The notes under the pieces are model-generated. The model had not been told where the DNA came from. It did not search any database and worked only from the letters and a program-made list of their open reading frames with translations. The translations under genes were made by a program, and so were the position numbers. A stretch of 64,000 bases of DNA, taken from an uncultured Vicingus sp. GTDB taxonomy: Bacteria; Bacteroidota; Bacteroidia; Flavobacteriales_E; Vicingaceae. Within the stretch, counting starts at the first letter, position 1; each line of letters begins with the position of its first letter. Where the stretch lies: the NCBI GenBank assembly GCA_964360245.1, contig CAYHWX010000003.1:2307-66306 (forward strand). The letters are read 5' to 3'. Positions 27,938 to 45,380 of the stretch are shown here, piece after piece.

Positions 27938-27995
27938 AGTTTGAAACAGCCCTTTTGTTTTAATTTTAGTACCATAATTTATAATTTAAAGAGAA

Positions 27996-28607: not shown

Positions 28608-28700
28608 TCAATTCTTAAAATCCTAAATTCTTGCCACTACTACAACTTTTTTGATGCGAACTATGATGATTTATAATTTACAAGAAACTTTATATAGTTA

Positions 28701-28730
28701 AAAAAAAGGGCTTATTTCAAGCCCTTTTTT
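28701..28730. terminator. bidirectional rho-independent terminator between convergent genes
   Basis: A-run, stem AAGGGCTT / AAGCCCTT with a 5-nt loop, then a T-run. It serves both the Crp-family gene (+) and narK (-). Confidence 0.8.
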
Positions 28731-28737
28731 GTGAATG

Positions 28738-30081
28738 TTAACTTGGTCTTTCGCAACCTTTTCTATTGTAATACCACCAGTTAATTATTGTAGCAAAAAC
28801 AAAGAAAGCCGCAATAGAATAAAAGAAACCATTTGCATTACCAGTATTAGTTAAAAACGCACTAACCGAAACAGCAAAAATGAATGGACCAAATGCTGCA
28901 ATAGCTGCACTAAAACCAATTACACCAGCAGCTTGACGATGATTGTGTCCGAAAATAATTGGATATTGACGAAATGTTGCAGCATTACCCATTCCTGTTA
29001 TAAAGAACAAAAACAACATTAAGTATAAGAAAGCAGGAAACTGATCAACCGAAGTTGGGGTTAATAATCCCATTTGAACCATTGCTACACAACCAATAAC
29101 TAAACCAATACCAGTAAGTGTAGTTAGAATAGCACCACCAACTTTATCGGCTATAAAACCAAATAATACTCGGCTACTTGCCCCAATTAATGGACCTAAA
29201 AATGCATATTTCAACGCATCAGGAGCATTAGCAAAATCACCATAAACAGTTTTAATCATTAATGGAAAAATTGCAGCTAACCCAGAAAAACCACCAAAAG
29301 TCATCACATAGGTAACGGTACAAAACCAAGTGTGTTTGTCTTTAAAAATATCCAGTTGTTCTTTAAAGGTAGCCTTTACAGGAATACTTTTGATTAAATA
29401 CCAAGAAGCGATTGCTAAGACGATTAACAACGGCACATACCAAAACGCAGCACTTTGAAGGTAAATTTCTGAAGTTCCTAAAACTTCTTTTGTTTTCGGG
29501 TCAGTTTTGGTAAAAATCTCCGATGCACCATAAGTAGCAACACCAAGCATAGCTGGAGTCATAAATTGAGCAACACTTACACCAAAATTACCAATACCTG
29601 CCTGAATACCTAAAGCAGTTCCTTGTAAACGTTTTGGGAAAAATAAACTTGTACTAGGCATGTATGAAGAGAAATCACCACCGCCAAAACCAGCAGTAAA
29701 AGCAATTACCATAAATACCCAAAATGGTGTTGTGGTGTTCATTACAGCTAAACCTAAAGCAACAGCTGGAATTAGTTTAATAATGGTTGAAATACTAATT
29801 ACATGACGAGAGCCATAAATAGGTAAAAGAAAAGTATGAATAATTCTTAATAAACCAGCAGCTAAACCAGGCATTGCAGCAAGCCAAAACAATTGGTCTT
29901 TATCAAATTTAAATCCTACACCAGGAAGTTTTGTTACAATTGCACTCATCATAAACCAAGTGGCAAATGATAATACCAGTGAAATAGTTGTAACTGTTAG
30001 CACTTTCCATGCTATTTTACTGCCTTCTGATTCCCAAAATTCTTTATTTTCTGGTTCCCATTTTGTTAGCCATGTTGCCAT
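28738..30081 (-). CDS. narK: nitrate/nitrite transporter NarK (MFS), NarK2/antiporter-like
   Basis: The N-terminus W.PE...FW...G..IA...L aligns by eye with E. coli NarK. The first TM region contains LPGVGFKFDKDQLFWLAAMPGLAAGLLRI. 12-TM MFS architecture. Confidence 0.85.
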   Translation of the reverse strand: MATWLTKWEPENKEFWESEGSKIAWKVLTVTTISLVLSFATWFMMSAIVTKLPGVGFKFDKDQLFWLAAMPGLAAGLLRIIHTFLLPIYGSRHVISISTIIKLIPAVALGLAVMNTTTPFWVFMVIAFTAGFGGGDFSSYMPSTSLFFPKRLQGTALGIQAGIGNFGVSVAQFMTPAMLGVATYGASEIFTKTDPKTKEVLGTSEIYLQSAAFWYVPLLIVLAIASWYLIKSIPVKATFKEQLDIFKDKHTWFCTVTYVMTFGGFSGLAAIFPLMIKTVYGDFANAPDALKYAFLGPLIGASSRVLFGFIADKVGGAILTTLTGIGLVIGCVAMVQMGLLTPTSVDQFPAFLYLMLFLFFITGMGNAATFRQYPIIFGHNHRQAAGVIGFSAAIAAFGPFIFAVSVSAFLTNTGNANGFFYSIAAFFVFATIINWWYYNRKGCERPS

Positions 30082-30115
30082 AATTTTAAGTTTAGTTAAG
30101 GTTAATTATTATTGA

Positions 30116-31363
30116 TTAGATTGTTTCTACTTCGATATTTTGTTTGGAATATTGTTCGGGAACTATTATTTTTCCTCCTTTACCTACCCATGTTTTAGTC
30201 CATTTTTTCTGAGCAACACGCAACACAATGAGTGCTATTATCGCTAGAGACATAAAGGCAATGAATCCCCATTGAAAAGTACCTGTCAATTGTTTTGATT
30301 GCCCCATAACATTTGGTATAAAACTTCCGCCCAAAGCACCAATTTCACCAATCATACTTCCTGCAACAGCTGTAGCTAAAGGCCATCTCAAAGGTACCAA
30401 TTGAAATAAAGAACCATTACCTGCACCAAATGCAGCAAAGCTTACCATGAATAAAATAGTGGTTGTAATAAGGTTCAATTGGAAAGAGGCAATAAACATA
30501 CAAATAATTATAATTACGAAAATTCCAGTGAGTGAATTAACACCTCCCCATTTATCGGAAATCCAACCACCAACAATTCGAACAGCACTTCCCATTATAG
30601 CTGCAAGCATAGTAAGTTGTCCTGCTTCGACTTTTGTTACTCCAAACTGGTCATGAAAATAGGTTGGAAGAAAACTTGCTAACCCAATAAAACCGCCAAA
30701 AGTAATGATGTAAATGAGGTTGAACGACCATCCGTCTTTTTCAAAAAGACATTTAATATGTTCCATAAAACTTTGTTTATGAACGTCAGGTGGCTCTTTT
30801 GCAAAAATTATCATCACTATAATGGGAATTAGCATAAAAATAGCTCCCATACCATACACTGCATGCCAACCAAATTGGGTGGCTAACGGAGGTGCAAATA
30901 ACATAGCTAGTACTGTTCCGCTATTACCTGCACCAGCAATACCCATAGCCAATCCTTTATACTTTGGTGGAAACCACCCACTACCTAGTGAAAGTGCCAC
31001 TCCAAAACTCGCTCCTGCGATACCAAGCAAGATGCCCATATTGATTACTTCAGAATAAGTATCTACCATAAAGTAGCCATAAAGTAAGGCAAAGAAAATC
31101 ATTCCCATTTCTACCAACGAGGCTCCTTTTCTTGTAATGTATTGTGCTAAAACACCAAGAGGAAAACGCATAATAGCTCCAGCAAGAATAGGAATGGAAA
31201 CCATAAATCCTTTTTCAGCAGCTGAGAGATGAAATTCTTCGCTAATAAATGGAGCCATCGCACCATTTAATACCCATATTGCAAAGCAAAAATCGAAATA
31301 TAAAAATGCTGAAAATAATGTGGGGGCGTGTCCCGATTTTAAAAATGTTTTAAAGTTTCCCAT
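30116..31363 (-). CDS. nitrate/nitrite MFS transporter, NarK1-like
   Basis: 12-TM MFS protein with NNP-family Gly-rich motifs (GIAGAGNSGT). Lies directly upstream of narK on the same strand. Confidence 0.75.
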   Translation of the reverse strand: MGNFKTFLKSGHAPTLFSAFLYFDFCFAIWVLNGAMAPFISEEFHLSAAEKGFMVSIPILAGAIMRFPLGVLAQYITRKGASLVEMGMIFFALLYGYFMVDTYSEVINMGILLGIAGASFGVALSLGSGWFPPKYKGLAMGIAGAGNSGTVLAMLFAPPLATQFGWHAVYGMGAIFMLIPIIVMIIFAKEPPDVHKQSFMEHIKCLFEKDGWSFNLIYIITFGGFIGLASFLPTYFHDQFGVTKVEAGQLTMLAAIMGSAVRIVGGWISDKWGGVNSLTGIFVIIIICMFIASFQLNLITTTILFMVSFAAFGAGNGSLFQLVPLRWPLATAVAGSMIGEIGALGGSFIPNVMGQSKQLTGTFQWGFIAFMSLAIIALIVLRVAQKKWTKTWVGKGGKIIVPEQYSKQNIEVETI

Positions 31364-31567: not shown

Positions 31568-32299
31568 CTAATTTGTCACTCCAAAAGGAGAGACGATTTT
31601 TATAAAATAGTCATGATTGTTAATCGCGATTTCATTTTTTGAAAGAATAATTACATTCTCTTTTTTAAAATCAGAGAGTACTCTAGAAAGCTGTTCAGAG
31701 TTAATTCCAGCTAAGGCAGATAAATCTTGCCTATTTAATTCTATTAAGAAAGGGTAGTTATGGCTTTCGTTAAAGAGAGAATTATAATACAATAATGCAT
31801 CAGCCACTTTTTCTCTAACGTTCATTTGTGCTTGGTTTTTTATTTTTGCTTCAGAGCTTCTTAGTTCGTTAGAATAATAAATCATTAACTCATAAGTTAA
31901 TTTTGGATTATCCATAAATGCTTTGAAAATAGTTTCATTATCAATTAAACAGATGTTTGATTCTTCTATAGCGATTGCACTTATCGGATATTTTTCTCTA
32001 CCATAACCTCTATGTCCAATAATATCACCTTTTTTGGTCAACCTAATTACCTGTGGTTTTCCAGCTAATCCTTTAGAAATAATTTTAGCCTTACCAGATT
32101 GTATAAAAAATAATCCCAACACAGTATTTCCTTCGTAAGCAATATATTGGTTTTGTCGATAAAAAGAAGTTTCTTTTGCATTACTAATTATTGTCAAATA
32201 ATCTTCAGAACAATTTTTTTTAATAAAACAATCTAATGTTAAACATTGGTTACAACTATTTTCTTGGGCATTAGAGTTAATCATTTGTAAAAAATTCAT
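31568..32299 (-). CDS. FNR-type oxygen-responsive regulator (Crp/Fnr family with N-terminal Cys cluster)
   Basis: N-terminal CNQCLTLDCFIKKNC plus a central Cys (NICLID). The HTH recognition helix EQLSRVL carries the FNR E--SR motif. Confidence 0.75.
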   Translation of the reverse strand: MNFLQMINSNAQENSCNQCLTLDCFIKKNCSEDYLTIISNAKETSFYRQNQYIAYEGNTVLGLFFIQSGKAKIISKGLAGKPQVIRLTKKGDIIGHRGYGREKYPISAIAIEESNICLIDNETIFKAFMDNPKLTYELMIYYSNELRSSEAKIKNQAQMNVREKVADALLYYNSLFNESHNYPFLIELNRQDLSALAGINSEQLSRVLSDFKKENVIILSKNEIAINNHDYFIKIVSPFGVTN

Positions 32300-32947: not shown

Positions 32948-33017
32948 TGAGTGTTATTTAAAGTTTTAATATTGTATGATTAGTTGATTTTTAATGATTG
33001 CTAATGAGTTCTTCTTA

Positions 33018-33392
33018 CTAAACAGGCTTGTCATTTTTGTAAATAATTTTTTGAGAAACCTCCTTATTTTTATTCCACAAAGTATATTCACCATTTAGTT
33101 GGTCATTAACATATTCACACTCTATAATTTTATTGCCTTCAATATCCCATGTTGTCCATTTCCCCTCCCTCTTGCCGTTAATAAAATTACCTTCCATATT
33201 TTTTTCCCCATTATCGTAATACCAAGTCCAAATTCCATTGTTTTTATTTTCTTTTATATTGCCACTCCGCTTTTTTTGACCGTTGTTGTACTCAAACTTG
33301 TTATCTTCTCTAATTACAAAATGAAATATTCCCCAAGCAACAAAAATTAAAGCAGTAACTACTTTGTGTGAGCTATTATAACTATATGACAT
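33018..33392 (-). CDS. MORN-repeat-like (YwqK-type) membrane-anchored protein
   Basis: N-terminal TM helix, then repeated G.W..(Y/W)..NG motifs (NGIWTWYYDNGEK, REGKWTTWDIEGNK, LNGEYTLWNKN). Confidence 0.55.
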   Translation of the reverse strand: MSYSYNSSHKVVTALIFVAWGIFHFVIREDNKFEYNNGQKKRSGNIKENKNNGIWTWYYDNGEKNMEGNFINGKREGKWTTWDIEGNKIIECEYVNDQLNGEYTLWNKNKEVSQKIIYKNDKPV

Positions 33393-33493
33393 ATTGAAAA
33401 AAATGATGATGAATACTAAAGTAAAATCAAAATTACCATAAATAAAAAATAGTTATAAGATTATTAATGAAATAATAGTATCAGATAACTTAT

Positions 33494-33507
33494 TTGATAA
33501 ACATCAT
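33494..33507. promoter_or_regulatory. FNR/Crp-type box TTGATaaacATCAT
   Basis: Ends 60 nt upstream of the ATG of the Crp/Fnr gene at 33567. Confidence 0.45.
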
Positions 33508-33566
33508 AACATTGTATGTTTAAAAATTGTAACTTTGCTAATATTTTTTAAATAGCATTTTTTAAA

Positions 33567-34274
33567 ATGAAAAATTTACCTGTAAAAATTCCATCTTGTT
33601 CGGAATGCGATAGTAAAAATATTTTTGATTGTTTGCCTCAAAATGAAATGGAAAAATTGAGTGTAAATAAGGACAATAATTTTTTTAAAAAAGGACAGGT
33701 AATTTTTTACGAAGGCAATCACCCTCACGGGATGTACTGTATTTATACTGGAAAAGTTAAAATTTCTAAATTAGGAGACGAAGGAAAAGAACAGATTGTT
33801 CGTTTTGCAGGTGAAGGAGAATTGTTAGGGTATAGGTCTGCATTAAACAATGAATCTTATAAAGCTACAGCGACAGCAATGGAAGATTGTTACATTTGTC
33901 ATATACCCAAAGAAAAGTTTTCCGAAGTACTAAATAACAATAGTAATTTTTCATTAGAAATTATTAAATTATTATCTGATGATTTAAAAAAATCGGAACA
34001 AAATTTATTAAATATTTCTCAAAAACCTGTTCGTGAAAGAATTGCAGAAACACTTTTAGTGCTAAAGAGTAGATTTGGGTTTGAAAAAGATGGAAAAACA
34101 CTAAGTATTATTTTAACTAGAAGAGAAATTGGTGATATTGCAGGAACTACTACTGAAACAACCATTCGAACACTTTCTGAATTTGTGAAAGAAGGAAGTA
34201 TTAAGCTTTTAGGTAAAAAAATTCTTATCCTAAATTCCGATAAATTAACTCTTTCAGCCAATCTGCATGATTAG
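33567..34274 (+). CDS. Crp/Fnr-family regulator with FNR-like Cys residues
   Basis: N-terminal CSECDSKNIFDC plus MEDCYICH. Has a cNMP-like domain and an HTH (ETTIRTLSEF). It is the last gene before the catabolic block. Confidence 0.7.
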   Translation: MKNLPVKIPSCSECDSKNIFDCLPQNEMEKLSVNKDNNFFKKGQVIFYEGNHPHGMYCIYTGKVKISKLGDEGKEQIVRFAGEGELLGYRSALNNESYKATATAMEDCYICHIPKEKFSEVLNNNSNFSLEIIKLLSDDLKKSEQNLLNISQKPVRERIAETLLVLKSRFGFEKDGKTLSIILTRREIGDIAGTTTETTIRTLSEFVKEGSIKLLGKKILILNSDKLTLSANLHD

Positions 34275-34366
34275 TGTATTTTCTTATTAATTAGTGTAAT
34301 TTTTAACTTCTTTTTTTCTTTTTAAATAATAGTTTTTTTAACTAATATTTGTTATTTTTTTAAACT

Positions 34367-34381
34367 AACTGAAAATCAGTT
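34367..34381. promoter_or_regulatory. palindrome AACTGAaaaTCAGTT upstream of the catabolic block
   Basis: Perfect 6+6 inverted repeat with a 3-nt spacer in the 373-nt leader region. Confidence 0.3.
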
Positions 34382-34416
34382 CTATGGGGTAAATTATTGA
34401 CGTTAATACGAAAACT

Positions 34417-34436
34417 AATCATATATATATATGATT
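34417..34436. promoter_or_regulatory. perfect 20-nt palindrome AATCATATATATATATGATT
   Basis: Read directly. It contains ATCAT and ATGAT half-sites in everted orientation around a (TA)n core, about 210 nt upstream of the first gene. Confidence 0.3.
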
Positions 34437-34647
34437 TAAAGCATATAAAAAACTTGCACTTATCATGTTTTATTCTAACATTGAGGGTTACTTTTATTCA
34501 CAATTATGACACAGTTATAACTATACCAACCATTCCATTTCATTTTTTGCTTGACAGCAAGGTATAGTTTTTCGTTTTACATATTTTAAAATCAAGTAAA
34601 GGATGAAATCAAAGGGAAAATTGGTTTTTGAATTTAAATGATATAAA

Positions 34648-35832
34648 ATGAAGAATCTTAAAGAATTAATTAGTGAGTGTAAAAATTATGCATTCGATTT
34701 GAACTTTTCAAGAGCAAAAGAATGGAAAGAAGAAAAAAAAGGTAGAGTGTTAGTAGGTTATATGCCTATTTACTTTCCAAGAGAAGTTATACATGCTGCA
34801 GGTGCAATGCCAGTTGGAATTTTTGGTGGTGGAGATCGTAAGCAAATTATAAAAGGAGATGCTTATTATCAATCTTACATCTGCCATATACCACGAAGTA
34901 TTATGGAAATAGCTCTCGATAAACAATTAGACCACATTGACGGATTTATCTTTCCTTCTATTTGTGATGTAATCAGAAACCTTTCTGGGATTTTTAAACA
35001 GCAAAAAATTGGGAAGTTTGTAAAATACATGGATTTTCCTCAAAACTTTCTTCCAGAAATTGGAGGAGTGTTCTATCAACAAGAAATGGAGCACGTATTA
35101 AAATACATAAAAGAAATAAACGGTATAGAGGTAACAACTGAGGCATTAAACCATTCAATCGATTTGTACAACAAAAATCGCCAAATGATTGAATTCATTT
35201 ACGATATTCGTCAAAAATTTCCCTGGAGATTGTCTATCGAAGATGTTTATTGCATCGTAAGAGCTGGCACAGTTATTCCTGTTGAAGAACACAACGAAAT
35301 TCTTTCTCAAGTTTGTGAACATATTAAACAAGATATAGGAGTGCCACAAGATAAAATTAAAGTGGTAATATCTGGAGCATTTTGCGAACAACCTGCATTA
35401 GGATTAATCAGAGCTATTGAAGAAGCAGGATGTTATGTGGTTGATGATGATTATATGCTTGGCTCTAGAATGATTTTAGGTGATATAGATGCTACTACCA
35501 ACAAACCTTTAGCGGCAATTGCATGGTCATATATTAAACAAAGTCAGTATTCATCGTCCATCTATGATGTACATAATCCAAAAGAGAATAGATTGGCTAA
35601 AATTGTAAAGGACAGAGGTGCTGATGGAGTAATTTTTGCTGCAGCTAGCTTTTGCGACCCTAGTTTATTAGACGCCCCTATTTTTCATAATGCATTTGAT
35701 AAAATGGGAATACGTTACATCTCCTTCCAATATAGCGAAAACATTAATCAATACAAAGTAATAAAGGAACAAGTGGGGACTTTCTCTGATTCAATAAAAT
35801 TATGGGAAGATGAAACAGTAATAGTTATATAA
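34648..35832 (+). CDS. benzoyl-CoA reductase subunit C-like protein (BcrC/BadD; BCR/2-hydroxyacyl-CoA dehydratase family)
   Basis: 394 aa. GYMPIYFPREVIHAAGAMPVGIFGGGD...QSYICHIPRS...DGFIFPSICDVIRNLSG resembles the BcrC/BadD signature. It is the first gene of a C-B-A-D-ordered quartet. Confidence 0.65.
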   Translation: MKNLKELISECKNYAFDLNFSRAKEWKEEKKGRVLVGYMPIYFPREVIHAAGAMPVGIFGGGDRKQIIKGDAYYQSYICHIPRSIMEIALDKQLDHIDGFIFPSICDVIRNLSGIFKQQKIGKFVKYMDFPQNFLPEIGGVFYQQEMEHVLKYIKEINGIEVTTEALNHSIDLYNKNRQMIEFIYDIRQKFPWRLSIEDVYCIVRAGTVIPVEEHNEILSQVCEHIKQDIGVPQDKIKVVISGAFCEQPALGLIRAIEEAGCYVVDDDYMLGSRMILGDIDATTNKPLAAIAWSYIKQSQYSSSIYDVHNPKENRLAKIVKDRGADGVIFAAASFCDPSLLDAPIFHNAFDKMGIRYISFQYSENINQYKVIKEQVGTFSDSIKLWEDETVIVI

Positions 35833-35871
35833 AAAATATTTATTAAATAGTTTGTGGTGAATAAAGTAAGC

Positions 35872-35906
35872 TAACAAAAAACTCTAAACCTCGAACTCTA
35901 AACTTT
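35872..35906 (+). repeat. 7-nt-phased (A/G/T)AAC-NNN array (5 units) ending 6 nt before the start codon
   Basis: TAACAAA AAACTCT AAACCTC GAACTCT AAACTTT, with units starting at 35872, 35879, 35886, 35893 and 35900. Confidence 0.8.
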
Positions 35907-35911
35907 ATAAT

Positions 35912-37201
35912 ATGGCACAAGAAGCACAAAAAGAAAAGAGCATGGTTCTCCAAAAGGATATGATAAGTTCTCTTTTTAATGACCTTGCTAATGCAAAAGA
36001 ATTAGGTAAAAAAGTTTGTTATACTTTTATTCCTGGGAACCTTTCTGAATTAATTCGAACATTTGATATGCTTCCAGTTTACCCAGAAATTAATGCACTG
36101 CAAAGTGCTATGCGAAAAAAATCAGCAGCATATATTAAAGAAGCAGAAAGAAATGCACATTCTGAGGATGTATGTACTTATGTGAAATGCGATGTAGGAA
36201 TGTTAATGAAAGGAAACATCGGACCAACAGGTGAGAAAATTCCTGAGCCAGATATTCTTTTGTTAAGCTATACGGGATGTTTTACTTTTCTAAAATGGTT
36301 TGAAACCTTAAAAAGAGAATATCCAAATGCAAAAGTGATTATGGTTCATACACCCTATCAAGAGAATGCAGAGATGACTCCTCAAATGACCCAGTATATG
36401 GTTAAACAATTTAAAGAAGAAGTTATTCCTCAAATGGAAGCAGTGACTGGTATTAAATATGACGAGGAAAAATTAAAAAGACACCTAGGATTAGCTGCAG
36501 AAGCTGAAGATTTGATTGCTAAAATATTTGAAACTACAAAACATAGACCATCACCTATTGATGCCTATTTTGCAGGAGTATATTACATTGGTCCAATTAA
36601 TATCGGATTTAGAGGAACTCAACAAGCGGTAGATTACTACAAAGAGTTATTAAAAGAAATTCATATCAGAATAGAAAAAGGACTAGGTCCTATTACTCCA
36701 GAGGGAGAAATGAAAGAAGAAAAATATCGATTGGTTGTTGAAGGACCACCAAACTGGACACATTTCAGAGAATTTTGGAAAATTTTCTATGATATGGGAG
36801 CTGTAATTGTAGCTTCTTCTTATACAAAGGTTGGAGGAGTTTATGATTTAGGATGGAGACACGACCCAGAAAGACCTTTAGAAGCATTAGCTGAATATTG
36901 TATGAATTGTTACACCAATTTAAACATTCCTCAACGAATCAGTTTATTAAAAAAATGTATTGTTGATTATAAAGCTGACGGGTACATTACCAATTCAATT
37001 AAAAGTTGTAATTCTTTTTCAGCAGGGCAATTAGGAATGATGCGTGAAATTGAAGATAGCTTAGAAATACCTGTTGGCTTTATTGAATCTGATTTGGTTG
37101 ACCCACGTTATTTCTCTTATTCAAATATTAAAAATAGGTTAGAATCTTTTTTCCAAATGCTAGAACAGCGTAAAAAAATAGAAGCTAAAGAAACAGTTTA
37201 A
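35912..37201 (+). CDS. benzoyl-CoA reductase subunit B-like protein (BcrB/BadE family)
   Basis: 429 aa. VCYTFIPGNLSELIRTFDMLPVYPEINAL...EDVCTYVKCDVGM is typical of the BCR/HAD core subunit family. Confidence 0.65.
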   Translation: MAQEAQKEKSMVLQKDMISSLFNDLANAKELGKKVCYTFIPGNLSELIRTFDMLPVYPEINALQSAMRKKSAAYIKEAERNAHSEDVCTYVKCDVGMLMKGNIGPTGEKIPEPDILLLSYTGCFTFLKWFETLKREYPNAKVIMVHTPYQENAEMTPQMTQYMVKQFKEEVIPQMEAVTGIKYDEEKLKRHLGLAAEAEDLIAKIFETTKHRPSPIDAYFAGVYYIGPINIGFRGTQQAVDYYKELLKEIHIRIEKGLGPITPEGEMKEEKYRLVVEGPPNWTHFREFWKIFYDMGAVIVASSYTKVGGVYDLGWRHDPERPLEALAEYCMNCYTNLNIPQRISLLKKCIVDYKADGYITNSIKSCNSFSAGQLGMMREIEDSLEIPVGFIESDLVDPRYFSYSNIKNRLESFFQMLEQRKKIEAKETV

Positions 37202-37228
37202 TTATTTTAACGACACAAACATTTAACT

Positions 37229-38644
37229 ATGAAAAAATATTATTTAGGAATCGATTTAGGCTCAACTACTTCCAAAGCAGTTATCATTAACGAAAATGAT
37301 GAAATTATAGGAAGAGGAATAACTAACACCAGAGCTAATTATAAAGTTGCAGCTGATATAGCTCGTGAAGAAGCTATTTATGATGCTCGTTTTACTTTAT
37401 TAACCAATAAACTTCATGTTGAAATTGACTCTAAACCAGAGTTTAAAAAATACATGAAAGACCTAAGAAGTGTTTTTCAGTATGGACAATTTAAACGAAG
37501 AATGGATAGTTTAGAAAAAACCTTAAAGGAAACAGTTGATTCATACACTTATAGTAATAAAGATCAAGTTGCTAAGGAAATATTTAAGATTATAGAAGTT
37601 ATTCGTCCTCAAATTCGACATGAGTTTGTAAATGAAAACTTAGGATCTAAAAATCAATTTTTTAGAGATATTGTTAGCGAAAGATATAACAGCGAAGTTG
37701 AAAAAGCTGATAAAACACTTTTTGAACCTTTAATGTTAGCTTTTGATAAAAGTATTACTCCTGTAGAAAACGAAATGGTTCAATTTATCTTTAAAGAGTT
37801 AGTTGATGAATCAATGAAAATTCTAGAAGAGAAGTACAAAGGATTGGCTGATCAACCAAATGATGAAAACAAGGAAGATTGGTATTATGCTGAATTAAAC
37901 GCTGTAAAGGATAATTATAAAACTGTTGAAAGTACGCTAAGTAACCATATAGCATCTATTGCAAATGAAGATATTCATATAGCTAATATGGTTGGAACAG
38001 GGTATGGTCGTGCGTTGCTTCCATTTCCTGAAGACTGTATTAAATCTGAAATTCTTTGTCATGCTTTTGGAGCTCACGCTATTTTTCCAAATACTAGAAC
38101 TGTTTTAGATATTGGAGGGCAAGATACCAAAGCCATTCAAGTTGATAGTCACGGCTTAGTAACCAGTTTTCATATGAATGATAGATGTGCTGCAGGTTGT
38201 GGAAGATATTTAGGCTATATTGCCGATGAGTTTGGAATTTCATTAAATGAATTAGGTCCAGAAGCAATGAAATCAGATAAAGAAACAGTAATTTGTTCCA
38301 CTTGTACTGTATTTGCAGGTGCAGAGGTAAAAGAGTTGCTGCACAATGGAGAAGAAAGACCTAATATTTTAGCAGGATTGCATAAATCTATTGTTCAACG
38401 AGCGATGTCTTTAATTGCTCGCTCTGGAGGAGTAAAAAACGAGTTTACCTTCACAGGAGGTGTCGCTCGTAACCAAGCAGTATTAAAGTATGTAAAGCAA
38501 ATGGTTACCGAATCATACGGAGAAGTAACTATGAATATTCATACCGATTCAATATTTATGGGAGCATTGGGTGGAGCTATGTTCGCCTTAAGAAACATTG
38601 ATGTGGATTTGCCAACTAAACAAAAAGAAGAAAAAATAGCATAA
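37229..38644 (+). CDS. BcrA/BadF-like ATPase subunit (BadF/BadG/BcrA/BcrD family, long form)
   Basis: ASKHA N-terminus YYLGIDLGSTTSKAV, followed by a helical insertion of about 170 aa. The cluster-ligand motifs are MNDRCAAGCGRYL and CSTCTVFAGAEV. Confidence 0.7.
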   Translation: MKKYYLGIDLGSTTSKAVIINENDEIIGRGITNTRANYKVAADIAREEAIYDARFTLLTNKLHVEIDSKPEFKKYMKDLRSVFQYGQFKRRMDSLEKTLKETVDSYTYSNKDQVAKEIFKIIEVIRPQIRHEFVNENLGSKNQFFRDIVSERYNSEVEKADKTLFEPLMLAFDKSITPVENEMVQFIFKELVDESMKILEEKYKGLADQPNDENKEDWYYAELNAVKDNYKTVESTLSNHIASIANEDIHIANMVGTGYGRALLPFPEDCIKSEILCHAFGAHAIFPNTRTVLDIGGQDTKAIQVDSHGLVTSFHMNDRCAAGCGRYLGYIADEFGISLNELGPEAMKSDKETVICSTCTVFAGAEVKELLHNGEERPNILAGLHKSIVQRAMSLIARSGGVKNEFTFTGGVARNQAVLKYVKQMVTESYGEVTMNIHTDSIFMGALGGAMFALRNIDVDLPTKQKEEKIA

Positions 38645-38663
38645 TAATTTAATATTTAAAATA

Positions 38664-39518
38664 ATGAGTAGCACTATATATACAATGGGAATCGACGTAG
38701 GTGGAAGTTACGTTAAAGGCGTAATTATGACCTACGACAATGAAACAGGTAATCATAAAATCGTTGATAAACAAACCGAAAAAATTAGAAAAAGAGATCC
38801 AAAAGATGTGGTTGTTGATACGATTGATATGTTATTAGAGCGTAATCATTTAAATTACGATAAAGACATCGCTTATCTTGCTTCCACAGGAGAAGGTGAA
38901 ATGGTTACTAAAAAAACAGGACATTTTTATGGTATGACAACTCACTCACGTGGAGGAATATTTTTTGCACCTGGGGCAAAAACTGTTGTCGATTTGGGAG
39001 GGTTATATGTTAGAGCCATAAAAATTGACGAAAGAGGAAAAGTTATCGATTATAAAATGACTGGTCAATGTGCCTCAGGCTCTGGTCAATTTATTGAAAA
39101 TATATCTAGGTATTTGGGCTTAGCTATTGAAGAAGTTGGTCCAATTTCTTTAAAAGCAGATCACCCAGAAGTACCTTCAGGAATTTGTGCAGTTTTAGCA
39201 GAAACAGATGTAATTAATTTGGTATCGAAAGGACTCTCAACTGCTAATATAGTGAAAGGAATTAATTTATCTATTGCAGGTAGAGCCGTAAAATTATTGG
39301 GAGCTCTTAAAGCAGAATCTCCAATTGCTTTGGTAGGAGGAATGGGAATGAATGTGGGTATGATACAAGCAATTAGAGAGCTATCTCAAGAAAAAGGAAT
39401 TGCAGATTTAGAATTTGTTGCTCATCCTGATGCTATTTATTCTGGTGCTGTTGGTGCTGCTCTTTGGGGAGGTTTTAGATATTATAAATTGAAAGAAAAA
39501 GGTGCTGTGATTGTATAA
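38664..39518 (+). CDS. BcrD/BadG-like ATPase subunit (BadF/BadG/BcrA/BcrD family, short form)
   Basis: 284 aa with MGIDVGGSYVKGV, MTGQCASGSGQFIENI and SGICAVLAETDVI. Confidence 0.7.
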   Translation: MSSTIYTMGIDVGGSYVKGVIMTYDNETGNHKIVDKQTEKIRKRDPKDVVVDTIDMLLERNHLNYDKDIAYLASTGEGEMVTKKTGHFYGMTTHSRGGIFFAPGAKTVVDLGGLYVRAIKIDERGKVIDYKMTGQCASGSGQFIENISRYLGLAIEEVGPISLKADHPEVPSGICAVLAETDVINLVSKGLSTANIVKGINLSIAGRAVKLLGALKAESPIALVGGMGMNVGMIQAIRELSQEKGIADLEFVAHPDAIYSGAVGAALWGGFRYYKLKEKGAVIV

Positions 39519-39542
39519 ATAATAATTCAAATATCTTTATTG

Positions 39543-41678
39543 ATGGAAACAGAAATGAAAAATGAAACAAAAAAAGTAACTGGGGTAACTCATGAATTAG
39601 ATTCTCTTTTCAAACCTAAATCAATTGCCATCATTGGTGCATCATCTAAAGAACTTTCTATAGGAAATGTTATTATCAAAAACTTAGTTCATTTTGGTTA
39701 TACTGGTCCAATCTATCCTATCAATCCGAAAGAACCAGAAATTAGAGGGATTAAAGCCTACCCAACTATATTCGATGTGCCTTATGAGATTGAGGCCGCA
39801 CACATAATCATTCCAAGCAAATTTGTTCCTCAAATAATTGAGGATTGTGGGAAAAAAGGAATAAAATCTGTTATCATCAATTCTGCTGGGTTTAGTGAAA
39901 TGGGCGAAGAAGGAATGGCTTTACAAAAAGCATTTTTAGCAAAAGCAAAAGAATATGGTGTACGTATTTTCGGACCAAATTGTCAGGGAATTATCAATTG
40001 CGACCCTGAATACAATGCCTATTGCGATTTTACTTTTACGTTTCCAAAACCGGGTTCAATTTCAATTGTTGCATTAAGCGGAGGTGTTGGAGCGTTTATT
40101 ATGCAAAGCCTTTTTGATTTAGAAATAGGCATGCGTATGTATGCTTCTAACGGAAATGCCTGCGATGTTTCTATTCCTGATGTGGTAGAATATTACGGTG
40201 AAGACGAAGGAACTAAAGCCATTATTTTATATACAGAAGGATTTTCCAACCCGGCAGCATTTATGGAGGTTGCTAAAAAAGTAGCCAAGAAAAAACCAAT
40301 TCTTGCCATGAAAGCGGGTCGTACCGAAGAAGGTGCAAAAGCTGCGGCTTCACACACAGGCTCATTAGCAGGAGTTGATATCGCAACTGAATTAATTTTT
40401 GAAAAAATAGGCATTCTTACTTTCAATAATGAAGAAGAAATGTGTCAAACTTCCATGGCGTTTGCAACTCAACCTATCCCGAAAGGAAACCGGGTGGGAA
40501 TTATTACCAATACGGGCGGACCCGCAGTTATTGCAACCGACGAATTGGTAAGTGCAGGAATGGTTTTACCTCCGTTATCGGAAAAAGCAAAAAAAGTTTT
40601 AACTGAAACCATGTTGCCAGAAGCGAGCATTAACAATCCTATTGATGTGGTGGCTACTGGTGGTGGACAACATTTTAGAAGTGCGTTAGATGTATTGATG
40701 AACGAAGATACGATTGATTCTATCTACATCAATTTTGTTACTGCACCTTTTACCGATACCGATGAAGTAGCTCGACAAATTGTGGAAGTGAGCAACATGA
40801 AAAAGAAACCGATTGTTTGTAATTTTATGACCAACCAAAGCATGGAGCGTTATCAAATTACCACCAAAATAATGAAAGATGGTGGTGTTCCATGTTATGC
40901 GTTCCCTACTACCGCAGCAAAAGCTTTGGGAGCATTGTACAAATACCATCAAGTGAGTACCCGAAATATTGGTGAAGCAAAAGTTTTTGCAGATGTAAAA
41001 AAAGATAATGCTCTCGCCATCATCAACGAAGCAAAAAAAGAGGGAAAATCTTTCCTTTCTTCTTCTCAGGTTTATAAGTTATTAGCTCAATACGGAATTC
41101 CGGTTGCCGATTGGAGGATAGCCGATTCTATTGATGATGCTGTTAAAGCTGCCGCTGAAATTGGTTTCCCGGTTGTTGTTAAAGCCGATGCCGAATCGTT
41201 GGTTCACAAAAGTGATATGGGCGGAGTTGCCATCAACTTAAAAAATGAAGCAGAAGTTAGAACAGTGGTTGAAAACATGAAAGCCAAATTTAATGCTCCC
41301 GATTTGAAATTCTTTATCCAAAAATTCTTACCCGGAGGCAGAGAATTAATAGCTGGTGTAAGTGCTAAAAAAGATTTAGGGCACTTAATCATGTTTGGTA
41401 TTGGTGGTATTTACGTTGAAGTACTGAAAGATGTAGTTTTTAAAATTGCACCAGTTACTGAAGTTGAAGCCAACGAAATGCTTACCAAAATTAAAGCAGC
41501 AAAATTATTAGATGGCGTTCGTGGAGAAAAAGGAATTGATAAAAAAAGTGTTATTGAAATTATTCAACGGTTATCGCAATTAGTTGTCGATTTACCAATG
41601 ATTCAAGAAATGGATTTAAACCCCATCATGGCTTTTGAAGATAAAGCTTTTGTGGTGGATGCTAGAATTAAAATTTGA
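39543..41678 (+). CDS. NDP(ADP)-forming acyl-CoA synthetase, fused alpha-beta (acetate--CoA ligase family)
   Basis: N-terminal CoA-binding domain (KSIAIIGASSK), phospho-His loop AASHTGSLAG and a C-terminal ATP-grasp domain. The track start 39540 is a TTG; the ATG is at 39543. Confidence 0.8.
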   Translation: METEMKNETKKVTGVTHELDSLFKPKSIAIIGASSKELSIGNVIIKNLVHFGYTGPIYPINPKEPEIRGIKAYPTIFDVPYEIEAAHIIIPSKFVPQIIEDCGKKGIKSVIINSAGFSEMGEEGMALQKAFLAKAKEYGVRIFGPNCQGIINCDPEYNAYCDFTFTFPKPGSISIVALSGGVGAFIMQSLFDLEIGMRMYASNGNACDVSIPDVVEYYGEDEGTKAIILYTEGFSNPAAFMEVAKKVAKKKPILAMKAGRTEEGAKAAASHTGSLAGVDIATELIFEKIGILTFNNEEEMCQTSMAFATQPIPKGNRVGIITNTGGPAVIATDELVSAGMVLPPLSEKAKKVLTETMLPEASINNPIDVVATGGGQHFRSALDVLMNEDTIDSIYINFVTAPFTDTDEVARQIVEVSNMKKKPIVCNFMTNQSMERYQITTKIMKDGGVPCYAFPTTAAKALGALYKYHQVSTRNIGEAKVFADVKKDNALAIINEAKKEGKSFLSSSQVYKLLAQYGIPVADWRIADSIDDAVKAAAEIGFPVVVKADAESLVHKSDMGGVAINLKNEAEVRTVVENMKAKFNAPDLKFFIQKFLPGGRELIAGVSAKKDLGHLIMFGIGGIYVEVLKDVVFKIAPVTEVEANEMLTKIKAAKLLDGVRGEKGIDKKSVIEIIQRLSQLVVDLPMIQEMDLNPIMAFEDKAFVVDARIKI

Positions 41679-41704
41679 AAATTAATCAATTTGTTAGTTC
41701 GAGT

Positions 41705-41725
41705 GCCACACCTTTATTGTGTGGC
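41705..41725 (+). other. hairpin GCCACAC-cctttatt... GTGTGGC in the spacer after the acyl-CoA synthetase gene
   Basis: 7-bp G/C-containing stem with a 7-nt loop, flanked by a 5-bp outer stem (AGTTC/GAACT). No U-tract follows. Confidence 0.35.
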
Positions 41726-41751
41726 GTATCGAGAACTTAAAAATAAAAACT

Positions 41752-42987
41752 ATGGAACAAGAAAAAAAACCTTACAAAATTGAATCAGCAAAATTGATGA
41801 AGAAAATAATGGGAGATTATTTTCTAGGTTTTAAAGATACCAAGAAAAAAATTGCTTGGTGTACCAGTGTTGGTCCTGCTGAATTATTACGATCTTTTGG
41901 ATTTGAAGTGCATTTTCCAGAAAATCATGGAGCATTGTTAGGTGCAACACGAACTGCTAACGATTTTATTCCTGAGGCCACTAAATTGGGGTATTCGAAT
42001 GATATTTGCTCTTATTTAACAGCAGATTTGGGCTCCTACATGTTAAAGCAAACACCATTACAAGAACATTATGGATTAGAAGGTCCTCCAAAACCAGATT
42101 TGATTGTCTATAATACCAATCAATGCAGAGAGGTACAAGATTGGTTTACTTATTTTGCTAGAGAATTTAACTGTCCAATTTATGGAATAAGACCTCCACG
42201 ACATGTTGATGAAGTGACTCAAAGTGATATTGAAGATGTTGCCACTCAATTTAAAGGAATGATTCCAATGTGTGAAAAAGCAAGTGGAAATAAATTTGAT
42301 ATGGAGAAATTTAGAGAAACGATTAGATTAAGTAAAGAAGCTACTGATTTATGGAAAGAGGTATTATGGACTGCAACATCTTCACCTTCGCCCATCAGCT
42401 TTTTTGATGCTACTATTCACATGGGCCCAATTGTAGTTTTAAGAGGCACTCAAGTTGCCAAAGATTATTACACAACACTTTTAAATGAATTAAAAGGAAA
42501 CATTGATAAAGGTATCGGATTTATTGAAGACGAAAAATGTAGAATTTATTGGGATGGAATGCCAATTTGGGGTAAACTTAGACCGCTCTCCGAATTGTTT
42601 CTTCAAAATGGGGCAGCTGTGGTTGCTTCAACATACTGTAACAGTTGGGTTTTTGATGCATTTGATCCAAAACATCCTTTCGAATCTTCAGCCAAAGCAT
42701 ATACAGAGATTTTTATCAATAGAAGTGAAGAAGCCAAAGAAAAATTATTAATTGCATTAGTTAAAGATTTTCGAATAGATGGAATAATTTTCCATGATGC
42801 CAAAACTTGCTTCAATAACTCTAATTCTAACTTCGGAATGCCTCAACGAATTACTGCTAAATTGGGTATTCCAACTTTAATTATTGAAGGCGATTTGTGT
42901 GATTTACGTTTTTATTCAGAAGGTCAGAGCATTACTAAAATTGAAACTTTTATAGAGCAGATTGTAGATGCTAAAGTAACTTGTTAA
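41752..42987 (+). CDS. single-copy BCR/2-hydroxyacyl-CoA dehydratase family subunit (possibly double-cubane-cluster-protein-like)
   Basis: 411 aa from the ATG at 41752 (the track start 41719 is a GTG inside a hairpin). KIAWCTSVGPAELLRSFGFEVHFPENHGA plus multiple conserved-looking Cys residues. No second core subunit is adjacent. Confidence 0.6.
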   Translation: MEQEKKPYKIESAKLMKKIMGDYFLGFKDTKKKIAWCTSVGPAELLRSFGFEVHFPENHGALLGATRTANDFIPEATKLGYSNDICSYLTADLGSYMLKQTPLQEHYGLEGPPKPDLIVYNTNQCREVQDWFTYFAREFNCPIYGIRPPRHVDEVTQSDIEDVATQFKGMIPMCEKASGNKFDMEKFRETIRLSKEATDLWKEVLWTATSSPSPISFFDATIHMGPIVVLRGTQVAKDYYTTLLNELKGNIDKGIGFIEDEKCRIYWDGMPIWGKLRPLSELFLQNGAAVVASTYCNSWVFDAFDPKHPFESSAKAYTEIFINRSEEAKEKLLIALVKDFRIDGIIFHDAKTCFNNSNSNFGMPQRITAKLGIPTLIIEGDLCDLRFYSEGQSITKIETFIEQIVDAKVTC

Positions 42988-42991
42988 GTTA

Positions 42992-43456
42992 ATGAAAAAA
43001 AGTAACAACATACCAAATTTTAATCCATCAATTGACGGAGGAAAACTTTCTGCTCAAGAAATTACTACTTTACTAAAAACAACTTGTAATTATGTTGATT
43101 ATGTTGAATTTACACAAAATAATAAAGAGCAATTGGTAGCGTTAATTTTCCCTAATAAGCAACTATTAAAAAACCCTGATTATCAAAAAACCCCTGAAGA
43201 AGGATGTTTTTGTCCACGAAATTTGGATGAGGTTGGCAGATGTTTAACAGGTTGTTTAAAAAAGGCAAATGCTGATTTAACCAACAAAAAAACGCCTATT
43301 TCTTTAGCTATTATTGTTGGTGAAAAATATACTGCTGAAAATGGAAAATTAACCGATTTAGGAGTCGAAAAAATTAAAAACATCATTGACCAACATAAAA
43401 ACCATTCCGCTGTTGATGATGTGTATATTATTGATTTGGAAACAACAATGGGCTAA
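42992..43456 (+). CDS. hypothetical Cys-rich protein
   Basis: 154 aa with a CxC-x9-C-x3-C motif (EEGCFCPRNLDEVGRCLTGC). Tightly packed between the two neighbouring genes. Confidence 0.45.
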   Translation: MKKSNNIPNFNPSIDGGKLSAQEITTLLKTTCNYVDYVEFTQNNKEQLVALIFPNKQLLKNPDYQKTPEEGCFCPRNLDEVGRCLTGCLKKANADLTNKKTPISLAIIVGEKYTAENGKLTDLGVEKIKNIIDQHKNHSAVDDVYIIDLETTMG

Positions 43457-43479
43457 ACCCCCATGTCAAAACGAATAAA

Positions 43480-45348
43480 ATGAGTAAAAAAAATAAAATA
43501 CGTGTTGGCGTTATCGGTCTTGGACCTGTTGGGATGATATTGGCTGTAAAATTACAGGAAGCAGGTTGTGAGGTGGCTTTGTGCGAAGTAAACGAAGTAA
43601 AAGCCAATAAAATTAAAACCGAAGGATTGATACTTGAAAATGTAATCCAGCAAAAAGCAAAATTCGACAAAGTACACACTTCTATTGCAGAACTTGAAGG
43701 TTGGGATGCTGATTATTTGTTTTTTGCATTAAAGTCAAACCAAACTGCTATTGCTGTTACACAATCTCAAATCTTGAATACCGAAAAATTAACTGTAATT
43801 TCTGCACAAAATGGAATAGACGTTGAACAATTATTGGTAGCTGGCTTTGGAGAAAATAAAACCATGCGTTTTGTAGTTAATTTTGCTGGAAATTCTTCCT
43901 CACCAAATACTACAAAAGTTACTTTTTTTACACCACCAAACTATATCGGTTCTATTAATGATACGTGTGCAAATAAAGCAAAAGAAATTGCCGATTTATT
44001 AACTTCAGTTTCTTTAGATACAAAAGCTACCGACTCTTTTGAATTGCTAAAAAGAATTTGGGAAAAAACAATCTTAAACGCAGCACTTAGTCCGTTATGT
44101 GGTGTAAGTCGTTTAACTATGGCTGAAGCCATGAGCGACCACGACACTGTTGAATTAATTGAACAAATAATAAAAGAAGGAATTGATGTAGCTGAAGCAG
44201 AAAAAATTCGTTTTCCCGATGATTTTGTTCGTCAATGTATGCGTTATCTCAAAAAAGGTGGCGACCACTTTCCTTCACTTGCCGTAGATTTAATAAATAA
44301 TCGTCCTACAGAAATTGATTACTTTAATGGTAAAATTGTAGAATACGGTCGTAAACATTACGTACGAACTTCATTAAATTTGGCATTTACCAACATGGTG
44401 AAAGCCATGACCAACAAAAATATTGTTTCCAGAATTCCTGGTGCTACAGGCGATGTTAATAAAAAAATTCTCGGCAAAGGATTAATAAACAAAGAATACG
44501 ATCCAACTTCACATAAAAATGAACAATGCTTTTTAGGTATCGATTTGGGTTCTGCTTATGCTAAATTTAGCATTGTTGACGAAAAAGGAACAATTATTTT
44601 TAGATACTTTTTGCCATCGCTGGGTAACGATAAACAAGCGTTTAAGAATGTAATGCAAACCATTGCTACCAACTTTAATATCAAATACAGTTGTGCTACA
44701 GGTTATGGTCGAAAACATTTCACAGAAACTGATATTGTTAAAACTGAAATAAACTGTGCTGCAGTAGGCGTTTCATATTTTCATAAAGGCGAAAAAAATA
44801 TTATTGACATCGGAGGTGAAGACATTAAAGTGATTCATTGTGATAAAGATAATAATGTGGCAAACTTTTACATGAACGACAAGTGTGCAGCAGGAACTGG
44901 CTCATTTTTAGCCGAAATTGCAGAAAGAGTAAATATCAATATTGCAGACATGAGTAGCTTAGCATCACTCTCAAAATACGACAAAGAATTGAATAGTTTT
45001 TGTACTGTTTTTGCCAAAACAGAAATTATGAATTGGATTTTTGATGGCATGTCGTTAGAGGATATTTCTAGAGGTATTTATATTTCTATTGCCAACAAAG
45101 TAGCTAAAATGCGTTTAGATGCTGGTGTTCCAACTTTTATGATTGGCGGCGTTGTGGAGCATCATCCTTATCTAAAAGACCTTTTAAACGAAAAATTTAA
45201 TAAAAACATTCAAATTATTGAACATCCGCAATATACTGTATCTTTTGGTGCAGCAATTGTTGCTATGCAAAATTTTAATAAGGGGAAAGGGGCAGACGAA
45301 AGGGACGAGGGAAAGGTAAATCTCGAAACTCTAATTCCCAAACTCTAA
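43480..45348 (+). CDS. fusion protein: ketopantoate-reductase (ApbA/PanE) family oxidoreductase + BadF/BadG/BcrA/BcrD-type activase ATPase
   Basis: The N-terminal 310 aa carry VGVIGLGPVG, IWEKTILNA and SLAVDLINNRPTEIDYFNG (PanE signature). After a linker of about 45 aa, the C-terminal 270 aa carry LGIDLGSAYAKF, MNDKCAAGTGSFLAEI and NSFCTVFAKTEIM (HgdC-like activator). Confidence 0.7.
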   Translation: MSKKNKIRVGVIGLGPVGMILAVKLQEAGCEVALCEVNEVKANKIKTEGLILENVIQQKAKFDKVHTSIAELEGWDADYLFFALKSNQTAIAVTQSQILNTEKLTVISAQNGIDVEQLLVAGFGENKTMRFVVNFAGNSSSPNTTKVTFFTPPNYIGSINDTCANKAKEIADLLTSVSLDTKATDSFELLKRIWEKTILNAALSPLCGVSRLTMAEAMSDHDTVELIEQIIKEGIDVAEAEKIRFPDDFVRQCMRYLKKGGDHFPSLAVDLINNRPTEIDYFNGKIVEYGRKHYVRTSLNLAFTNMVKAMTNKNIVSRIPGATGDVNKKILGKGLINKEYDPTSHKNEQCFLGIDLGSAYAKFSIVDEKGTIIFRYFLPSLGNDKQAFKNVMQTIATNFNIKYSCATGYGRKHFTETDIVKTEINCAAVGVSYFHKGEKNIIDIGGEDIKVIHCDKDNNVANFYMNDKCAAGTGSFLAEIAERVNINIADMSSLASLSKYDKELNSFCTVFAKTEIMNWIFDGMSLEDISRGIYISIANKVAKMRLDAGVPTFMIGGVVEHHPYLKDLLNEKFNKNIQIIEHPQYTVSFGAAIVAMQNFNKGKGADERDEGKVNLETLIPKL

Positions 45349-45374
45349 ACACGAAACATTGAACTTTAAACTTA
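45326..45374 (+). repeat. 7-nt-phased AAAC-NNN array (7 units) spanning the stop codon of the fusion gene
   Basis: AAACTCT AATTCCC AAACTCT AAACACG AAACATT GAACTTT AAACTTA, preceded by a purine-rich stretch (45281-45320). Confidence 0.8.
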
Positions 45375-45380
45375 ATTAAT

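Follow-up and report, generated by a model that had tools for sequence, protein, structure and literature searches.

ATP-dependent class I benzoyl-CoA reductases (BCRs) are built from a heterodimeric core and a heterodimeric ATPase, and 2-hydroxyacyl-CoA dehydratases from an alpha/beta pair with a single homodimeric activator of about 260 aa. Studies of the class I reductases have dealt with a small number of Proteobacteria (PMC11971306). Here we analyzed a stretch of 64,000 nucleotides from an uncultured Vicingus sp. (contig CAYHWX010000003.1 of assembly GCA_964360245.1), referred to below as the window, which carries four adjacent genes in the order C-B-A-D. These genes probably encode a dearomatising class I benzoyl-CoA reductase of the BCR type, that is, the Thauera/Rhodopseudomonas type, which uses ATP and needs no oxygen to break the aromaticity of the ring, and we put the probability of this assignment at roughly 0.78. 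A first-pass annotation, made from the letters and their open reading frames (ORFs), had proposed a dearomatising aryl-CoA reductase, and this proposal gains support from the equivalog scores, the two distinct ATPases and the pathway genes beside orthologous operons.

Family assignment of the four subunits

The module consists of four intact ORFs on the forward strand, all starting with ATG and separated by gaps of 19-79 bp in the ORF list (Table 1). Their coordinates and sizes (394, 429, 471 and 284 aa) were exactly as given in the first pass, and the motifs quoted there were all found in the translations (FPSICDVIRNLSG, CTYVKCDVGM, NDRCAAGCGRYL, CSTCTVFAG, TGQCASGSGQFI and GICAVLAETD). The first two products matched Pfam HGD-D (E 1.7e-68 for the BcrC-like and 6.2e-63 for the BcrB-like protein) and the last two matched BcrAD_BadFG (E 3.3e-69 for the BcrA-like and 2.6e-52 for the BcrD-like protein), in agreement with the earlier reading of one pair as the BCR/2-hydroxyacyl-CoA dehydratase core family and the other as two different BadF/BadG/BcrA/BcrD ATPases. 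The G+C content across the cluster was 0.30-0.38, like that of the remainder of the window. The genome had been read as of Bacteroidota type, which is what its best relative (a Vicingus sp., 96%), a protein with a type IX secretion system (T9SS) sorting domain and a fused CcoN/CcoO in the window indicate. A scan of 33000-52000 for sigma-70 promoters and intrinsic terminators performed no better than on shuffled sequence, and the operon limits are therefore drawn from gene spacing only.

The branches of the family were separated using NCBIfam equivalog models, each of which has a curated cut-off. The best model of the BcrC-like protein was TIGR02263 (426.2 bits, above the cut-off of 421.15), and that of the BcrB-like protein was TIGR02260 (635.9 bits, above 486.55). 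On the other models, the BcrC-like protein reached 173.6 bits for HadC (cut-off 700), 120.2 bits for the double-cubane model and 84.1 bits for BzdN (cut-off 453.8), and the BcrB-like protein reached 188.5 bits for HadB (cut-off 750) and 70 bits for BzdO (cut-off 448.6). The HadB/HadC, BzdO/BzdN and double-cubane scores were 3 to 9 times below those for BcrB/BcrC, which places the core subunits apart from the dehydratases. The two core proteins showed no similarity to each other at the BLAST level.

With 30% identity over a stretch of 179 residues, the two ATPases are old paralogues; their best equivalogs are also different, TIGR02259 for the BcrA-like and TIGR02261 for the BcrD-like protein, so the recent duplication considered in the first pass did not fit. 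The BzdQ model gave them 146.5 and 95.1 bits against a cut-off of 380.2. An insertion of about 170 aa had been pointed out in the first ATPase. This insertion is real and measures roughly 180 aa, as the 269-aa MbdQ chain has nothing that corresponds to residues ~55-240, but it is not peculiar to this gene. It is a normal BcrA feature, because the BcrA model TIGR02259 has 432 positions and the 446-aa classical BcrA of the comparator locus L085 (described below) aligns with the 471-aa protein over 463 columns with 44% identity.

These results bear on whether the module could instead be a 2-hydroxyacyl-CoA dehydratase whose activator is unusual in being heterodimeric. The two enzyme types are branches of one BCR/HAD superfamily with the same Pfam domains, and 2 kb downstream there is a genuinely HadB-like gene. 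Nevertheless, such a dehydratase is exceedingly improbable: the HadB and HadC models were missed by a wide distance while the BCR models were passed, there are two old and distinct ATPases, one of them with the BcrA insertion, and the context of the orthologues is the benzoyl-CoA pathway.

Cysteine conservation was evaluated in 73-80 orthologues plus the classical non-Bacteroidota sequence. The invariant cysteines were 79, 106, 246, 262 and 336 in the BcrC-like protein (79 sequences, including classical BcrC), 88, 123, 330 and 366 in the BcrB-like protein, and 277, 320, 324 and 359 in the BcrA-like protein; the BcrD-like protein has two cysteines in total, 136 and 175, both invariant (73 sequences). 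HMMER alignment matched Cys88, Cys123 and Cys366 of the BcrB-like protein with Cys95, Cys128 and Cys380 of BzdO, the three residues that bind the catalytic aqua-[4Fe-4S] cluster, and Tyr90 with BzdO Tyr97, which forms a hydrogen bond to the thioester (PMC11971306). The ligand set expected of the BCR type, two cysteines per ATPase and three in the substrate-binding subunit, is present.

Among solved structures, the 3-methylbenzoyl-CoA reductase (MBR) MbdONQP was the best match of all four subunits (E 1.3e-60 for the BcrB-like, 2.9e-59 for the BcrC-like, with MbdN 9g87_B as its match, 8.7e-63 for the BcrA-like and 2.8e-33 for the BcrD-like protein), followed by HadBC/HadI, with BzdNO a distant third. 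By most of the tests that can be run on sequence, the module is a member of the BCR type, and a divergent one.

Orthologous operons and alternative explanations

The orthologue scan used one genome per GTDB species and found BcrB orthologues in 210 species genomes with 71-96% identity. Labels were taken from the best 80 of the 210 genomes; nearly all of these were labelled as Bacteroidota metagenome-assembled genomes (MAGs), a few carried other labels, and the closest relative among them was an uncultured Vicingus sp. (96%). Database relatives of BcrB number in the thousands. The best 120 are 83-93% identical; the named ones among them are all 'benzoyl-CoA reductase subunit B' and come from MAGs of Flavobacteriales, Saprospirales, Sphingobacteriaceae, Vicingaceae and Haliscomenobacteraceae, and proteins of the same 90% cluster carry this label from both NCBI and JGI. 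Outside the Bacteroidota clade, the best full-length representative was 59% identical. The locus L085, in which a member of its cluster is encoded, has the genes Oah-like, Dch-like, bcrC, bcrB, bcrA, bcrD and an 81-aa 2x[4Fe-4S] ferredoxin, and it was called the classical comparator based on this layout. The identity between the window and L085 was 45% for C, 59% for B, 44% for A and 51% for D. A tblastn search of BcrB against PLSDB plasmids gave only generic HGD-D proteins of at most 26% identity.

For the context survey, ORFs were called in 82 loci with 10-kb flanks and clustered, and recurrent families were annotated. The C-B-A-D order was kept in the 82 orthologous loci, and two downstream arrangements dominated in the relatives: a thiolase followed by had, oah and dch, or a fusion of 3-hydroxyacyl-CoA dehydrogenase and enoyl-CoA hydratase (HCDH::ECH). 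In these relatives Had is a Zn-alcohol dehydrogenase that passes TIGR03201 (439 bits, cut-off 339), Oah is a 362-aa crotonase that passes TIGR03200 (583 bits, cut-off 464), and the Dch-like protein is a crotonase cut by the locus end with TIGR03189 as the best match. Had was found within 10 kb in 27 of the 61 loci with full flanks, and Oah and Dch were found in 13 and 3 loci, counts that are both limited by the 10-kb flank. HCDH::ECH follows the module in 18 of the 61 loci. Both arrangements occur together on the 1.14-Mb contig of L087, where one strand carries bcrCBAD, the ligase, the HadB-like gene, the activase fusion, thiolase, had, oah, dch, HCDH::ECH and a POR-type oxidoreductase.

Had, Oah and Dch are encoded downstream of orthologous operons of 84-92% identity. 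This context, in which a complete benzoyl-CoA pathway appears to surround the operon, is the strongest functional evidence for the reductase assignment. Divergently upstream of bcrC, 14-24 loci also carry a MobA-like transferase, XdhC, a short-chain dehydrogenase/reductase (SDR), a fused 932-aa protein and an FAD (beta-like) subunit. The 932-aa protein has [2Fe-2S] and molybdopterin domains, and it matches 4-hydroxybenzoyl-CoA reductase best, namely the gamma and alpha subunits of this enzyme. In 14 loci this 4-hydroxybenzoyl-CoA-reductase-like set scored 796 bits for TIGR03194 and 215 bits for TIGR03195, both below the cut-off. The divergent set is absent from the window; the loci that have it include L018, L019, L032, L033, L036, L048 and L050.

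Several observations weigh against the assignment to a benzoyl-CoA reductase. Both ATPases fell below their equivalog cut-offs, the BcrA-like protein with 431.2 bits for TIGR02259 (cut-off 578), where the divergent insertion loses score, and the BcrD-like protein with 299.8 bits for TIGR02261, 13 bits under the cut-off of 312.85; in each case this was still the best model by a wide margin. The catalytic His131 of BzdO is replaced by Phe in the BcrB-like protein, which is no argument against reductase function because MbdO, from a genuine aryl-CoA reductase, also has Phe. In the 64-kb window, no Had, Oah, Hcr-like or SDR protein was detected by tblastn, no homologue of dch was found, and no small ORF anywhere has the CxxCxxCxxxC pattern of a ferredoxin. 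The locus L086 of a Vicingus MAG has a window-like layout in which had, oah, dch and hcr are likewise missing within 10 kb. Finally, the substrate range cannot be read from sequence. His131 of BzdO was also considered as a marker for reductases and was rejected, as MbdO lacks it as well.

Some of these observations would suit a BCR-type, ATP-dependent reductase whose substrate is a substituted or other aryl-CoA, such as hydroxy-, methyl- or amino-benzoyl-CoA. The two ATPase scores below the cut-offs, an identity of only 44-59% to the classical cluster, a 3-methylbenzoyl-CoA reductase as the best solved relative and the absence of the standard downstream genes from the window all point in this direction, and an intermediate that contains nitrogen could be hinted at by the downstream genes for RidA and the lactamase-like HyuAB. 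We nevertheless consider such a substrate unlikely. BcrB and BcrC pass cut-offs that were built on benzoyl-CoA reductases, and the match to MbdO (208 bits) is a match to the sole BCR/MBR-like structure available. The Had, Oah and Dch enzymes encoded behind the 84-92% identical orthologues process the unsubstituted dienoyl-CoA, and the 4-hydroxybenzoyl-CoA-reductase-like enzyme of the 14 loci would supply plain benzoyl-CoA.

The missing genes could also mean that the module is a stranded remnant, in which the reductase genes were retained and the pathway was broken by loss of dch, had, oah and ferredoxin. All four are absent from the window, and the thl-had-oah-dch block, which lies between the activase fusion and HCDH::ECH in L087, is missing in both the window and L086. 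However, all ORFs are intact, and the four bcr genes are under strong purifying selection, with ratios of nonsynonymous to synonymous substitution (dN/dS) of 0.02-0.11 against four relatives, two of which have the same layout; these values are rough because dS was near saturation. The order in L086 is CBAD, ADP-forming ligase, HadB-like gene, 155-aa ORF, activase fusion, HCDH::ECH, HyuA, HyuB, RidA, acyl-CoA dehydrogenase and an OB-fold/thiolase pair. Because L086 shows the same order, the window arrangement is conserved and no assembly accident, and the layout is shared by at least two Vicingus-type genomes. The window covers 64 kb of the genome, and the missing genes may lie elsewhere in it. 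A remnant is very unlikely, and a BCR-type benzoyl-CoA reductase is the reading we prefer.

A mechanism for this reductase can be proposed by analogy with the characterised family, to which sequence and gene context link the four proteins. The BcrA/BcrD heterodimer would hold one bridging [4Fe-4S] cluster through Cys320 and Cys359 of BcrA and Cys136 and Cys175 of BcrD, accept an electron from a low-potential donor and hydrolyse ATP. The energised electron would then pass to the BcrC/BcrB dimer, in which BcrB would hold benzoyl-CoA beside the three-cysteine [4Fe-4S] cluster, and the ring would be reduced by two electrons to cyclohexa-1,5-diene-1-carbonyl-CoA. A candidate source of low-potential electrons is the 2-oxoacid:acceptor oxidoreductase encoded further downstream in the window (Table 1), and the POR-type pair of L087 likewise stands at the end of its cluster.

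Genes flanking the module

Table 1. Features of the window discussed in the text, in order of position
Feature	Position	Strand	Size, domains or scores
Crp/Fnr-family regulator directly upstream of bcrC	33567-34274	+	cNMP_binding and HTH_Crp_2 domains; candidate regulator only
BcrC/BadD-type subunit of the catalytic dimer	34648-35832	+	394 aa
BcrB/BadE-type substrate-binding catalytic subunit	35912-37201	+	429 aa
BcrA/BadF-type ATPase with BCR-type insertion of ~180 aa	37229-38644	+	471 aa
BcrD/BadG-type ATPase	38664-39518	+	284 aa
ADP-forming (ACD-type) acyl-CoA synthetase	39540-41678	+	CoA_binding, Succ_CoA_lig and ATP-grasp_5 domains
Third HGD-D protein, HadB-like (alpha-type)	41719-42987	+	best PDB match HadB 3o3m_A, E 9.2e-49
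Free-standing ANL-ligase C-terminal domain with Cys-rich insert	42992-43456	+	154 aa; homologous to the C-terminus of AMP-forming ligases of other loci
PanE/ApbA (ketopantoate-reductase-family) domain fused to a third BcrAD_BadFG activase	43480-45348	+	622 aa; ApbA, ApbA_C and BcrAD_BadFG domains
HCDH::ECH fusion (3-hydroxyacyl-CoA dehydrogenase::enoyl-CoA hydratase)	45381-47399	+	672 aa; 3HCDH_N and ECH_1 domains
Two-subunit 2-oxoacid:acceptor oxidoreductase	54621-57094	+	TIGR03710 239 bits and NF008820 130 bits, both below cut-off

In related loci, an add-on composed of a CoA ligase, a third HGD-D protein and a PanE/ApbA::activase fusion is located between bcrD and the downstream genes; none of the three genes is present in the classical locus L085. 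The CoA ligase was found in most loci. It is AMP-forming in most of them and ADP-forming in 17 of the 82, including the window, and both types occupy the same operon slot, a case of non-orthologous displacement.

The third HGD-D protein scored 214 bits for the HadB model NF052455 (cut-off 750) and is 30% identical to the BcrB-like protein, and its three cluster cysteines align with those of HadB. It was found in 59 of the 64 related loci with enough downstream sequence, and no beta (HadC-type) partner for it was found in the window or the related loci. The PanE::activase fusion passed the cut-offs of both TIGR00241 (173 bits, cut-off 125.4) and TIGR00745 (168.6 bits, cut-off 141.35) and was found in 54 of 62 related loci, with Cys469 and Cys508 of the activase invariant. 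Its public label is only '2-dehydropantoate 2-reductase', in which the activase half is unmentioned. An identical protein is present in a groundwater assembly from Hainich (ENA ERZ1292621 'Hain_H52').

The 154-aa protein was seen only in loci in which an ADP-forming ligase replaces the AMP-forming one. Its Cys32, Cys72, Cys74, Cys84 and Cys88 are conserved, and the motif KCHY...GCFCPRxLxELGxCLxGC is kept, while 'TLTPSMK', which we take to resemble the ANL adenylation-lysine motif, is lost. No Pfam or NCBIfam model matched this protein, and a profile search of PDB sequences gave nothing meaningful. Its AlphaFold model has a pLDDT of 71, and the top Foldseek matches were ANL ligases, although these matches are weak (E ~1e-3, TM 0.35). 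The dN/dS was ~0.15-0.17, which shows purifying selection.

Loci with different ligase types also differ in the subtype of their HadB-like protein, and BcrB identity does not follow the ligase type; therefore, the add-on appears to have been exchanged as a unit. In the larger module conserved in Bacteroidota, bcrCBAD is joined by a CoA ligase, by a HadB-like protein that has an activase of its own, and by beta-oxidation genes. With low confidence, we propose that the add-on could convert aromatic 2-oxo acids to (R)-2-hydroxy acids, then to their CoA esters and to enoyl-CoA esters, from which beta-oxidation would lead to benzoyl-CoA or 4-hydroxybenzoyl-CoA. In its full form, this idea joins several parts and would make the Bacteroidota cluster more than a Thauera pathway moved into another phylum. 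The HadB-like protein as a homomer, the 2-oxoacid-reductase::activase fusion and the CoA ligase would form a second ATP-driven radical enzyme system that feeds the 2-oxo acids of Phe and Tyr through aryl-lactate, aryl-lactyl-CoA and cinnamoyl-CoA into benzoyl-CoA or 4-hydroxybenzoyl-CoA. The Cys-rich C-terminal domain of the ligase would survive as a separate protein upon the ligase swap, and in Vicingus the dch-had-oah genes would perhaps be replaced by HCDH::ECH, the hydantoinase-like HyuAB, the acyl-CoA dehydrogenase and the ChsH2-type OB-fold/thiolase pair. We regard this combination as speculative and unlikely as a whole. If it is true, the aryl-lactate route would be an undescribed peripheral route into the benzoyl-CoA pathway. 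Alternatively, the add-on may be linked to 2-hydroxyglutaryl-CoA and glutaconyl-CoA.

After the module, a co-directional string of genes continues on the forward strand (47529-63959). Encoded there are a caprolactamase-like hydantoinase A/B whose scores stay below the cut-off, RidA and an acyl-CoA dehydrogenase, as well as the two subunits of the 2-oxoacid:acceptor oxidoreductase and a FabH/HMGS-like protein to which a ChsH2 zinc ribbon and OB fold are fused. The string also includes genes for an SCP-x-type thiolase, for both subunits (small and large) of a B12-dependent mutase and for a CaiB-type CoA-transferase. Its first part, up to the thiolase, has the same order in L086, minus the T9SS and oxidoreductase genes. 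The T9SS gene (51381-52976, +) encodes a 531-aa protein with the C-terminal sorting domain and lies 8 bp after hyuB; it is absent there in L086.

Upstream of the module, a respiratory island (11478-13616 and 18433-31363) contains fused cbb3 oxidase subunits I/II, CcoG, narG, narH, a 216-aa ORF, a NarI-like gene and two NarK-type transporters. The interval from these nitrate genes to bcrC contains three regulators of the Crp/Fnr family (27996-28607, +; 31568-32299, -; 33567-34274, +), two of them with N-terminal cysteine clusters, and the last of these genes is found upstream of bcrC also in the closest loci (L004, L011 and L014). Since the operon is located downstream of a nitrate-respiration island and Crp/Fnr-type regulators, its expression under anoxia is likely. 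A search for the FNR box TTGATNNNNATCAA with at most one mismatch gave 7 matches against 9.1 expected, with none upstream of bcrC and no enrichment. The window also encodes a hemerythrin-domain protein (27191-27919, +), whose gene follows the nitrate genes and precedes the first of the Crp-type regulators, and such a protein is found near the bcr/hcr clusters in ~13 related loci (L010, L032, L036, L048, L050 and others).

Significance and comparison with known systems

The first-pass annotation had supposed that no such enzyme was characterised in this lineage. The literature on benzoyl-CoA reductase and Bacteroidota taxa, of which our search covered a part, contained no characterisation in the phylum, which is absence of evidence only. 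There is no novelty at the sequence level, because 210 species genomes carry the operon and annotation pipelines already name its proteins. The novelty is biochemical: a known enzyme is extended to a phylum in which no characterised member was found. The parts that could be new are the add-on and the Vicingus-type downstream layout, and the ligase, HadB-like protein and PanE::activase fusion are a concrete lead to a new feeder reaction.

Should the Bacteroidota enzymes prove active, the breakdown of aromatic rings under anoxic or denitrifying conditions could be within reach of a large and mostly uncultured group, namely the Flavobacteriales, Saprospiraceae and Chitinophagales sampled from groundwater, lakes and other habitats. 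Metagenome surveys would then have to revise which organisms they count as anaerobic degraders of aromatics. With its distance from the classical cluster, the enzyme would also offer a divergent BCR-type member for structural and mechanistic comparison.

Four systems serve for comparison. BzdNOPQ (PDB 8s02; PMC11971306) comes from the same superfamily, and its O/B subunit has a three-cysteine [4Fe-4S] site that aligns; in contrast, the scores of 70-146 bits are far from the cut-offs of 380-454, and BzdO His131 is not conserved. HadBC with HadI (PDB 3o3m and 4eht) is the closest known relative of the HadB-like gene at 41719-42987, which is similarly paired with its own activase domain. The differences are that no beta subunit is present here, that the activase is fused to a ketopantoate-reductase-family domain and that the HadB model is far from its cut-off (214 versus 750). 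MbdONQP (PDB 9g87 and 9gai) resembles the module as the best structure match of all four subunits and in the Phe at the position of BzdO His131; it differs in that MbdQ has 269 aa without the BcrA insertion and in that its scores are well below those of the BCR-type equivalog models.

The closest counterparts are BcrCBAD of Thauera aromatica and BadDEFG of Rhodopseudomonas palustris. The first pass had stated that the locus mirrors Thauera bcrCBAD, which holds for the order and sizes of the four genes and not for their surroundings, where no ferredoxin follows bcrD, dch, had and oah are lacking, and the ligase, the HadB-like gene and the PanE::activase fusion are wedged directly after bcrD. 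The host also differs, being a member of the Bacteroidota here and of the Proteobacteria for the classical type, and identities of 44-59% together with A and D subunits below their cut-offs set the module apart. What it shares with the Thauera/Rhodopseudomonas type are four subunits of matching sizes, BcrB and BcrC scores above the cut-offs, an A subunit with the long insertion (471 aa, compared with ~430-450 aa in the BCR type and ~270 aa in plain activases), two distinct ATPases with two cluster cysteines each, and the conserved cysteines of the catalytic subunit.

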